A stretch of 64,000 nucleotides of DNA from Amoebidium appalachense (lineage: Eukaryota; Protista; Ichthyosporea), in assembly GCA_963693365.1 (NCBI GenBank), contig CAVNZM010000013.1:5012640-5076639 (forward strand), in the 5' to 3' direction. The notes beneath the pieces were generated by a model. That model saw nothing but the letters and a program-made list of their open reading frames with translations, was not told the DNA's origin and made no database searches. Below, piece after piece: positions 32,201 to 35,200 of the stretch. The translations under genes and the position numbers were made by a program. Positions within the stretch are counted from its first letter, which is position 1. Each line of letters opens with the position of its first letter.

Positions 32201-35200
32201 GGGGTGGGGGTGGGGATGGGTGTGTGTGTGTGTGTGTGTGTGTGTGTGTGTATGTGCGTGCGTGTGCGTGTGCATGCGTGCGTGCGTGCGTGCATGTGTG
32301 CGCGCGTGCGCGCGTGGCGCATATGTGCTGCCGGTAATTCTTACTCTACTTAGGCGTATTAGTGCATGGTGGTTTTGGATTCTTGACTTTTGCTCTAGTA
32401 CTCTTTGGATTTTGCTCTTTATGAGGCAGGCAGCTGTTAGGTTCTCTATGGATGGACCAAGGTCGGCCTGGCTGGGCTTGCCTTTTAGAAATGATTGGTA
32501 ACGTTTCTTCAAGAGAAGGTGACGCCGCGTTGTTGACTTCAGCCCTCGGCCCACCCCCCGTGTCTACTTTTCTTCTTACTGTTTTCCTCTCCACACACTT
32601 CATTTGTCCACTTCTGCATACCCCCTTTCATAGCTATAGACACACTTCACACATTGCGTTACGCGCACGCATGCACACACCGCTCTGTTGGCGACAGCTC
32701 CCTTGGAACCCATGCGGCATGTAACATAACTCGGACTATCGATTTGGCTTTTTTCAAGCCCAAAGCAATGGGTGGTACCATATTTCCGGCTGACATCCGG
32801 GGGTATAGCTTTCCATTCGAAGACGATAAAGTTCCGCCCTAGTAAGCGTGTTACTAACCTGCGGCGTGGGTCAAATATCATATTTTCCCCTCTGATTGCG
32901 AATTCTGCGGCCTTCGGGACTTAATTCTTTTCAGCTGGTGTAATATGTTAGCCAGGGAAGTATCGACTTAGGTAGCGACGGGGGAGCTTCCTAGAAGCCC
33001 CGTCTCCTGAGTTCCTATCTATATTTTTCTTGCTTCTGCTTACTGCTGCAACTTTAATCCCCGGCCTTTCCCACTGCCCTTGCCTGCATAAGCAACCCTG
33101 CTCGTCTCTGATCAAGACGGATGACCTACCCATGTTCACGTGAAACAGTATCTGAGTTGGGTTTCGTTAACGAGGTGAATAGGTCGAAACTCGGGTACTG
33201 TGGATGACGTGGGCCCCCCCTGAGGATGGGCTCTGCTTATTATGCATACTCTTTATGTATGGCTTGCATTCTGCATCGTGTCATCCGTTTGTTCATGTAT
33301 ACTTCGTACTTTTTGACGCATTCAAACCCCCCCCCCCCCCTCCCCCTCACTCTCTCTCGCGCACGCGCACACACACACACACACACACACACGCTCACCC
33401 ACTCACTCATTCACTCACGCATTCACTCACTCATACACCATATGCGCACGCACACACACACAATATTTCTATTGTCTCTCTAACCCCCTCCCCTCTCTCT
33501 TTCCTCTTCACGTCTTCTCTTTCTGTCTCTCCTCCTCCAACTCCCCCTGCCCCCATCCCCCCCCCTCCCCCCCCCCCCCCCCCCCTTCCTCCCCCCCCTT
33601 TCTCCCTCTCCTTTCCCCCAACACCATCCCTACCCCCTCCACCCCCCTCCCCAGCCCCCCCCCCTTCCCCCCCTGGCCACACACACACACACACACACAC
33701 ACACACACACACACACACACACACACACATTCACACATTCACGCACTCCACGTGTTTTCAGAGACAAAGCCGCAGGAGACAAAGCAGACAAAGGGGCAGA
33801 CAAGGGCAAGGACGATAAGCCGGCAGAGGCCAAAGAGGAGGATGCCGAGCAGAAGGCTCTGCGCTCGGGTTTGGCTGGTGCGCAATTATTCGCTCTCCCC
33901 CCCCCCCCCCCCCCCCCCCCTCCCCCAAAAAAAAAAAAAGAAAGAAAGAAAGAAAAGAAAAGAAAAGAAAAAGACAGAGAGAGGGGGAGGGGGGGGAGGG
34001 AGAGAGAGAGAGAGAGAGAATATTCACGCATTGTCATAAAGCTTTGCACACCACACATACACGTCCGCGCGCCGTGGGGAGGATTGTGTGCTTTGGTGGA
34101 TTGTAATCCCTCTGGTGTGTGGTTGGACGGGTGAAGGCGAATGTGGTAGAGGGTGTGTGTTTGTGTTTGGAGAGGGACCAGCGTGCCCGGGGGGGGGGGG
34201 GGGGGGGGGGGATATTCTTTGGGCAGAGAACACAGGCTGCGGTAATGACTGGACTGGTCAAGGAGCTTCGTGTTGATGAGTTGGGAGTGTGCGTGTGTAT
34301 GTTTTGGTGCATGTGTGTGTGTGTTTGTGTGTGTGTGTGTGCGCGCGCGGGTGCGTGCGTGCGCGGGTGTGCGTGTGCGTGTGTGCGTGTGTGTGTGTGT
34401 GTGTGTGTGTGTGTGTGTGTGTGTGTGTGTGTGTGTGTGTGTGTGTGTGTGTGTGTGTGTGTGTGTGTGTGTGCATGTGGTGACAATGTCAATGCAGGGG
34501 CCATCATCACGGAGAAGCCCAACGTGCAGTGGGACGATGTTGCCGGTCTGGATGCGGCCAAGGAGGCACTGAAGGAGGCCGTGATCCTGCCCATTAAGTT
34601 CCCACAGCTGTTCACGGGTAGGTCCACGTGTTTGCACGTGTTTACTGCACTATTTGAAAGGTCCTGGAAGAGAAAATGAGTAGTCTGCAGTTCTGGAAGG
34701 GAAACCGGGGCTTCCCAGGGGGGAGGAGGGAGGGGGCCCCGGGGGGGGGGGGGGGGGGGGGGGGGAGGGATAGGGGGAGGGGCAGGGAGAGTGGGGGGGA
34801 GGGGGTTTAATTAATAGCCGTATGCCGCTCTTTTTGGGGGGGGGGAGGGGGGGGGGGGGGGGGGGGGTTATTTGATGTCTTATTTGTTTCTGCAGGCAAC
34901 CGAACTCCGTGGCGGGGTATTCTTCTCTATGGGGTATGTGCCTCCCTCCCCCCCCCCCTCAACACGCACACACACACACACACACACACACACATCGGTT
35001 GCGAACTATGTGGATAGGTTGATGGCTCTGCATACCAATTATTTTCTTTCCTCGTTGTTTCCTTTTTTTTTCGACGGGTTATACCGTCCTCATCATTCGT
35101 TGTCCTTATCTAGTTCTCATATTAGGCACTATTAGGCACCCGTTTTGACACGCGTGGCCCGGTTTAGCCATGGTTTAGTGGTGGTCCCACATGCATGTAC

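Follow-up and report, generated by a model that had tools for sequence, protein, structure and literature searches.

A likely Penelope-type retroelement of Amoebidium appalachense carries a putative hammerhead ribozyme opened between A9 and G10.1

The window analyzed here is a 64,000-nucleotide (64-kb) stretch of the genome of the ichthyosporean Amoebidium appalachense (assembly GCA_963693365.1, contig CAVNZM010000013.1, positions 5,012,640 to 5,076,639, forward strand). It is rich in introns, C/G runs, and CA microsatellites; runs of at least 8 bases number 108 for C and 102 for G. Sequence shared by a dispersed repeat was detected with nhmmer in 15 pieces at E < 0.01 (18 listed). One full-length copy (copy A) lies in sense within a putative intron of a gene that appears VPS4-like by its MIT and AAA domain layout, and another copy (copy B) is a tandem of two units on the opposite strand. 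A first-pass annotation of copy A had proposed a covarying structured RNA with hammerhead ribozyme motifs in a non-canonical order, and this RNA and the element that carries it are the subject of the present analysis. The intron and the copies of the element are as follows.

32152..33761 (+): putative intron of the VPS4-like gene holding copy A in sense (PF04212 [MIT] at 30175, PF00004 [AAA] at 36742; exon translations, splice motifs)
32560..33330 (+): full-length family-A element (copy A), ~770 bp, non-coding, C-runs at both sides (depth, Pfam, flanks)
41072..41523 (-): family-B unit B2, 452 bp, complete; domain at 41193-41351, predicted cut after 41279; unit end-to-start joint in 4/4 runs
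41524..41951 (-): family-B unit B1, lacking 24 bp at its 5' end and placed head-to-tail before B2; domain at 41645-41803, predicted cut after 41731
36683..36849 (+): 5'-truncated copy starting 3' of the predicted cut, lacking block S and the upstream stem II strand
39404..39590 (+): 5'-truncated diverged copy, C3 lost
51080..51177 (+): copy limited to the 3' end, with a C-run on each side
23682..23804 (-): diverged copy of the 3' end, likewise flanked by two C-runs
31197..31398 (+): old decayed copy

The boundaries of family A are marked by the summed contig depth of sequencing run X1, which rises from 37.5 in the flank to >1e5 at ~32560 and ends at ~33335; the depth of 1e5 to 1.5e6 across the element is not a copy number. 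No Pfam match was obtained in the five family-A frames scanned. Family B is a 452-bp unit whose 5' part is unrelated to family A. Its units B1 and B2 are identical at 428/428 bases, and each carries a hammerhead domain in a head-to-tail arrangement without coding capacity, as in non-long terminal repeat (non-LTR) retrozymes. The copies share a common 3' end, have variable 5' start points, and mostly adjoin C-runs; the 30 bases downstream are 77 to 97% C in 6/8 pieces checked, in a window that is itself rich in C-runs. No tRNA head was found in the element. Part of family A is present in 20/24 listed sequencing runs with six organism labels, the low shares among them possibly reflecting contaminating sequence of a high-copy repeat. 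Although the 5' halves of families A and B are unrelated, both start with a GUCU motif directly after a C-run (32560 and 41523), and the diverged copy at 39404 continues into a GUCU motif beyond its 3' end. At 32720, copy A lacks 13 bases that a near-full-length contig of run X17 contains, as do loose ends of runs X1 and X20.

The domain of copy A is divided into the following parts, with core bases numbered by the hammerhead convention.

33088-33240 (+): whole domain of copy A
33088..33098 (+): 5' strands of P1, the closing stem (33088-094), and P2 (33096-098), invariant between A and B; pair probability 0.57-0.94 and 0.68, respectively
33100..33122 (+): P3 hairpin, ending directly 5' of G10.1 (A/B comparison)
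33123..33135 (+): displaced half of block C, comprising the 5' strand of stem II (G10.1 = 33123) and one contact-helix strand (helix between stems I and II)
33145..33161 (+): block S, i.e., a stem III strand, the GUU triplet (predicted cut after 33158), and the stem I 3' strand
33163..33174 (+): variable hairpin in the linker between the stem I and stem II strands, different in A, B, and the copy at 39404
33180..33201 (+): block G, i.e., the stem II 3' strand, GAAA (G12 = 33186), and a stem III strand
33207..33227 (+): contact-helix strand, linker, stem I 5' strand, CUGAGGA core (33220-226), and the U after A9
33228..33240 (+): 3' strands of P2 and P1

All 13 bases of the hammerhead core (C3-A9, G12-A15.1, U16.1, and H17) are kept in A, B1, and B2. 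The core is flanked by the expected pairs, namely G-C at 1.1-2.1, G-C at 10.1-11.1 (using the upstream G33123), and A-U at 15.1-16.1, and block S is in register through U16.1-A15.1 and G1.1-C2.1. The helices are stem I (33159-161/33217-219), stem II (33123-128/33180-185), stem III (33145-157/33189-201), the closing stem P1 (33088-094/33234-240), and a 7-bp contact helix that joins the distal strands of stems I and II (33129-135/33207-213) and contains one double compensation. Linker base 33214 is variable or deleted within the family. A G-to-A change at 33121, private to copy A, breaks one P3 pair; >99% of the family depth has G at this position.

The pairings listed in the first-pass annotation were all present at their places in copy A, with apical hairpins that differ between A and B and a closing stem that is invariant. 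Its claim of compensatory change was also borne out. Among 24 pairs of stems I and II, inner stem III, and the contact helix, four differ between A and B by double-sided compensations, one per helix (including U-A/C-G at 33127-33181 in stem II, U-G/A-U at 33133-33209 in the contact helix, and G-C/A-U at 33161-33217 in stem I), two by one-sided changes that keep the pair, and one by a broken terminal pair, the other 17 being invariant. Random placement of 11 substitutions reproduced this result in only 13, 67, and 297 of 1,000,000 trials at transition weights of 1, 4, and 10, respectively (P = 1e-5 to 3e-4). In the alignment, 96.5% of the cells were paired versus 31 to 44% with slid partners, although with only two independent sequences the accompanying shuffle count is not a probability. 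Core identity between A and B (13/13) stands against 33/49 for other unpaired bases and 54/85 for the 3' tail. A four-block descriptor, composed after the element had been seen, matched only A, B1, and B2 in the 64 kb and 0/20,000 dinucleotide shuffles of each copy. In the sequencing runs, no variant at 5% or 1% fell within the 13 core bases, and the high-frequency variants of the domain lie mostly in linkers (41310, 41274, and 41219/33214) or keep pairs. Family variants at 33130 and 33217 yield G-U pairs, and part of family A has a U-U mismatch through a variant at 33209. Assembly from a dimer, offered by the annotation as an alternative, is unnecessary, as a single copy provides every helix.

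The order of the motifs (NUH, GAAA, CUGANGA) differs from the circular order of types I to III (CUGANGA, GAAA, NUH), as the first-pass annotation had stated. This order is not unknown, being that of type SGC of Eckert et al. (2023; PMC10085705), and the element has the S-G-C block order with two pseudoknots of this circular class. According to the available passages of that paper, the order of the hammerhead blocks S, G, and C can be non-circular, and types SGC (HRIMA-1; 583 sequences) and CSG (two sequences, both metagenomic) cleave at rates of 0.004 to 0.19 per min and need all four helices, including a stem I-II contact helix. The same passages describe both types from metatranscriptomes and metagenomes and from no genome of a known organism, and their scheme of six permutations assumes that block C is interrupted by at most 1 to 2 nt. 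The element shares with these types the doubly pseudoknotted core, the stem I-II helix, the extra U after A9, and similar stem lengths, and its dimensions match those of cleaving SGC ribozymes. An extra U between A9 and G10.1 is found in 3/3 SGC constructs in the available oligonucleotide tables of PMC10085705. Cervera and de la Pena (2014; PMC4209133) report, in the part available, an extra base between A9 and G10.1 in hammerheads of Penelope-like elements (PLEs), and the passages shown of Perreault (2011) mention core insertions of 1 to 2 nt only.

In contrast to SGC and CSG ribozymes, the element has an interrupted block C, with the stem II 5' strand and one contact-helix strand upstream of block S. 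A contiguous stem II would have 0 bp (2 bp after the extra U), while the upstream strand provides 5 to 6 bp. It also has a hairpin in the I-II linker, and it resides at high copy in a eukaryotic genome, whereas the published ones come from metatranscriptomes and metagenomes. By its sequence, the element is a predicted SGC/CSG-class hammerhead that fails the contiguity test of all six published permutations, and the opened link is the new part. A U is present both after A9 and before G10.1, and apart from this the dimensions of the element match those of SGC-3. In the structure that we infer, the opened link runs from A9 through a U into helix P2, and hairpin P3 ends directly before G10.1. P2 and P3 would stack beside stem II and the G12-A9 core stack, forming a four-way junction that carries the 5' and 3' arms of the RNA. 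The fold may be described as a circular permutation of the SGC/CSG hammerhead, opened where these ribozymes bulge a U. In a literature search, with subscription papers, theses, and bioRxiv supplements outside its scope, neither a hammerhead opened at A9/G10.1 nor a permuted hammerhead in a Naiad was found to have been described.

As the annotation had anticipated, a standard motif search misses the domain: Rfam gave no match at gathering score in the 64 kb, and family B had none at E up to 10. Within 32300-33400, seven weak matches were all far below the cut-off, and a partial Hammerhead_1 match scored 14.2 bits against a threshold of 34. A CPEB3/HDV-like match at 32821-32909, in the 5' half of family A, scored 13.3 bits versus 35 and is probably due to chance. 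Readings as a C/D-box, kink-turn, twister, HDV, or hairpin RNA, judged by eye against their consensus sequences, were dropped because stem III pairing takes up the CUGA and the fit to the hammerhead register is complete. Pattern scans for relatives returned 1, 0, and 52 loci in three scans of viral contigs, 15 in metagenomes, and 8 in prokaryote genomes. We treat these as chance matches; the 24 loci compared by BLAST had no similarity outside the pattern, 7/8 prokaryotic matches lie inside open frames of at least 249 aa, and only four of the 52 viral loci pass a relaxed descriptor, none with a contact helix of >2 bp.

The same layout was found in Naiad elements. Naiad/Chlamys PLEs are described in the available passages of Craig et al. 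(2021; PMC8557442) as 5'-truncated, forming partial tandems and inserting into microsatellites ([C]n for many Chlamys). Canonical hammerheads are reported there as absent from Naiads, while 10 Naiads are flagged as 'HHR_core' and 8 as 'HHR_half_core', the latter with GAAA 35 to 50 nt away on either side. We read by eye the 3' regions of ~19 of 54 records, reached through motif and header matches in the consensus file, and took the record names from neighboring headers and metadata order. Within this part of the file, eight records from five animal groups show the opened layout (Naiad_Bfor, Naiad_Amil, Naiad-2_Movir, Naiad_Plae, Naiad_Obim, Naiad_Ovul, Naiad_Esco, and a record in part 19, probably Naiad_EuTe). 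Their parts follow in the order P2 strand, P3 hairpin, stem II, contact strand, S, G, contact strand, stem I, CUGANGA, and P2 strand. The stem sequences are unrelated between groups, only the two octopus records being near-identical; stem I has 2 to 6 bp, stem II 5 to 6, stem III 5 to 13, and the contact helix 5 to 15, and the triplets are GUA, AUC, GUU, and UUC. Naiad-2_Movir matches the window element almost part for part, including a U opposite a U at P2, and the weakest fits are Bfor (2-bp stem I) and Esco (mismatch in stem II). The origin of stem II from the upstream GACC, which the first-pass annotation had proposed together with a doubly pseudoknotted hammerhead-like fold, is backed by the covariation in the window and by the Naiad layout, and the proposed fold is likewise supported.

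In five further records (Naiad_Parc, Naiad-3_Nbra, Naiad_Hpol, Naiad_Smim, and one in part 15), a complete hammerhead of the contiguous CSG form was seen by eye, in nematode and spider 3' regions. In the 3' ends of Naiad-4_Chem and Naiad-1_Movir, no CUGANGA was seen by eye, and a shared motif is present. This common motif may resemble a twister ribozyme, in which case one slot would hold different self-cleaving RNAs.

The element shares with Naiad/Chlamys the 5' truncation, the partial tandems (i.e., a truncated copy followed by a full copy), the (C)n flanks, and the opened hammerhead layout; insertion into microsatellites ([C]n or [CA]n) also applies to it, within a window that is itself C-run-rich. 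It differs in being only 452 to 770 bp long and in lacking an open reading frame for endonuclease and reverse transcriptase (EN-RT), and thus the N-terminal GIY-YIG plus RT architecture. A preference for (C)n is recorded for Chlamys, the ribozyme match being to Naiads, and the likeness described here is one of layout. With the minimal hammerheads of PLEs, as described in the part of PMC4209133 available, the element shares the retroelement setting and the extra A9-G10.1 base; those are type I, have a minimal stem III, and act as dimers, whereas stem III is long here and no second copy is needed. The available portions of the work on non-LTR retrozymes (PMC7229834; bioRxiv 10.64898/2026.07.22.740005) describe non-coding elements with one hammerhead per unit, arranged head-to-tail and likely mobilized by PLEs, as here. 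Their hammerheads, however, are canonical type I, of which Rfam found none at gathering score in our element, and their units are 150 to 450 bp, so that unit A is longer; moreover, single and truncated copies dominate here, and the element is known from DNA rather than from circles.

Taken together, the element is likely a non-autonomous, 5'-truncated, and poly-C-flanked retroelement of the Penelope type (Naiad/Chlamys-like). The domain very probably folds as the proposed hammerhead, and copies with the consensus sequence would probably cleave themselves. The best overall explanation, and one that we regard as reasonably likely, is a non-autonomous Penelope-type element with an opened hammerhead ribozyme. 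With more reserve, the balance also favors the broader proposal that the new topology is an active ribozyme of Naiad-clade PLEs, occurring alongside contiguous CSG forms from comb jellies to octopus, and reaches high copy here through a circle-forming, poly-C-targeting element. The repeat is likely an overlooked self-cleaving RNA that would process the transcripts of the element.

Transcripts would be cut after GUU at H17 (33158) by the hammerhead mechanism. Transcription through a more-than-unit copy such as B1+B2 would yield two cuts 452 nt apart, and the monomer could be circularized, after which a helper RT would prime on the C-run at genomic G/C runs. One turn or less would produce the common single and 5'-truncated copies, and nearly two turns a new tandem source. 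A linear cut monomer would not be a direct template because the predicted cut lies mid-unit and the genomic ends lie at the C-run; a circle from a more-than-unit transcript, primed on the C-run, would reconcile the two. Such a route follows the model put forward for the mobility of PLEs and retrozymes (PMC7229834 and PMC4209133, as far as available). The alleles that B1 and B2 share at 41112 and 41128 make up ~10% or less of the family depth, which indicates that both units came from one template. Given that the sequencing-run data are contigs, circles are not distinguishable from tandem DNA, and the lack of an end-type depth step at the predicted cut is uninformative insofar as contigs cannot reveal RNA ends; in two presumed-RNA runs, the coverage also extends over the intron flank or is shallow. 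On the present evidence, we consider the case for the circular route evenly balanced.

Several observations weigh against this interpretation. Folded by itself, the domain has weak z-scores (-1.03 and -2.28), and as a circle the A unit is not better folded than shuffled sequences (z = -0.06; -2.08 for B). In nested folding models, both copies form P1, P2, stem III, and the contact helix (P3 weakly in A), but the core is masked, and 6.6 (A) and 10.5 (B) kcal/mol are needed to release it, pseudoknot gains not counted. That cost is about what the two pseudoknot duplexes could return, making the active fold plausible, though not necessarily dominant. Only two independent covarying sequences exist in the window, and P1, P2, and P3 lack A/B covariation (17/18 pairs invariant, one broken in A). 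The absence of core variants has low power, since just 14/182 positions in 41180-41361 vary at 1%, and a variant at 41249 (~1% in X1) disrupts stem II with its partner unchanged. The sense position of copy A in an intron argues against fast constitutive cutting by that copy. No RT or EN domain matched in the 150 frames scanned (149 of 154 passing the length/complexity filter), and no autonomous PLE helper was found among them. Of the Naiad records read, six did not fit or stayed ambiguous (Naiad-4_Chem, Naiad-1_Movir, Naiad-Ppla, Naiad-3_Dst, a part-18 record, and Naiad-2_Skow), and the Chlamys matches in the same part of the file included no clear opened-layout case, though (C)n targeting is a Chlamys trait. 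Lastly, the end-to-start joints are far shallower than the unit depth, and template jumping or local duplication would also explain them.

This last point bears on the possibility that the ribozyme is real while the RNA moves linearly, like a short interspersed element, with tandems arising from template jumps, local duplication, or insertion into an earlier C-tail, and with cutting serving to limit read-through transcripts. Most copies are indeed single or 5'-truncated, joints of a 3' end to a truncated copy also occur, and exact end-to-start joints are a small minority by depth. Yet a mid-unit cut would destroy a linear template, and no listed joint is deeper than the exact end-to-start joint of the B unit, which occurs in 4/4 runs and has several junction variants. 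The rare alleles shared by B1 and B2 exclude two independent insertions, but not local duplication. We regard linear mobility as doubtful, though a serious contender against circle formation.

It is improbable that the domain is a hammerhead-derived fold that no longer cuts, or cuts only with a protein, and serves as a recognition structure for the helper RT. The masked core and the near-invariance of P1 to P3, as expected of a binding site, would fit such a role, as would full-length copies that span the site uncut and a tolerated sense intron insertion. All catalytic bases and the NUH rule are nevertheless kept in both subfamilies and in the eight Naiad records while the stems turn over completely, and related Naiads carry contiguous CSG, a type that cleaves in vitro; both roles could coexist.

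Even less credence is due to an ordinary type-SGC ribozyme in which stem II is formed by the bases after A9 and a bulged U (33228-233/33180-185), with the upstream GACC and P1 to P3 acting as an off-switch. After the extra U, which is characteristic of SGC ribozymes, G10.1-C11.1 and a G-U pair can form, and both A/B changes at 33180-181 are tolerated. A G-G mismatch follows these 2 bp, however, and the duplex would be weaker by 3.6 to 4.5 kcal/mol (split, -6.7/-7.1; contiguous, -2.2/-3.5 kcal/mol); furthermore, the position of the contact helix next to the upstream strand is exactly that seen in SGC/CSG, and in Naiads the bases after A9 pair, by eye, with a separate upstream P2 strand and not with the strand before GAAA. 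That the motifs are a chance by-product of a structured rod in the repeat is hardly credible, for although the weak z-scores, the null Rfam result, and the after-the-fact descriptor would suit it, the shuffles, the covariation in both pseudoknotted core helices, and, above all, the recurrence in unrelated Naiad sequences across phyla largely refute it.

If the preferred reading of an opened hammerhead is correct, CUGANGA and its stem II strand are separable, against the working rule, and the topology has been missed by descriptor and Rfam searches. It would overturn the reported absence of hammerheads in Naiads, which the available passages of PMC8557442 use as an argument that PLE ribozymes may be dispensable parasites, and would explain the Naiad 'half-core' motifs. 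Non-circular permutations would move from unknown metatranscriptome RNAs to the genomes of animals and other eukaryotes, and a core position that accepts a whole helical domain would offer a new site for ribozyme-switch engineering.

Some minor features of the window were also noted. In an old copy of the element at 15641-15831 (-), the P3 hairpin is still fully paired by eye, via one-sided changes. A second repeat at 36468-36672 (+) and 24538-24725 (-), with ~71% identity between the two places, opens with the same CUGANGA-to-P1 segment and has a different 3' tail; it is possibly a third subfamily. The VPS4-like gene (30175-40100, +) holds four sense family copies (31197, 32560, 36683, and 39404) between its exons. 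Elsewhere, the window contains an exon for a PARG helical domain at 62252-63031 (+; PF20811, E = 9e-18) and an unrelated tandem repeat at 56901-57162 with a 116-bp period and 97% identity.

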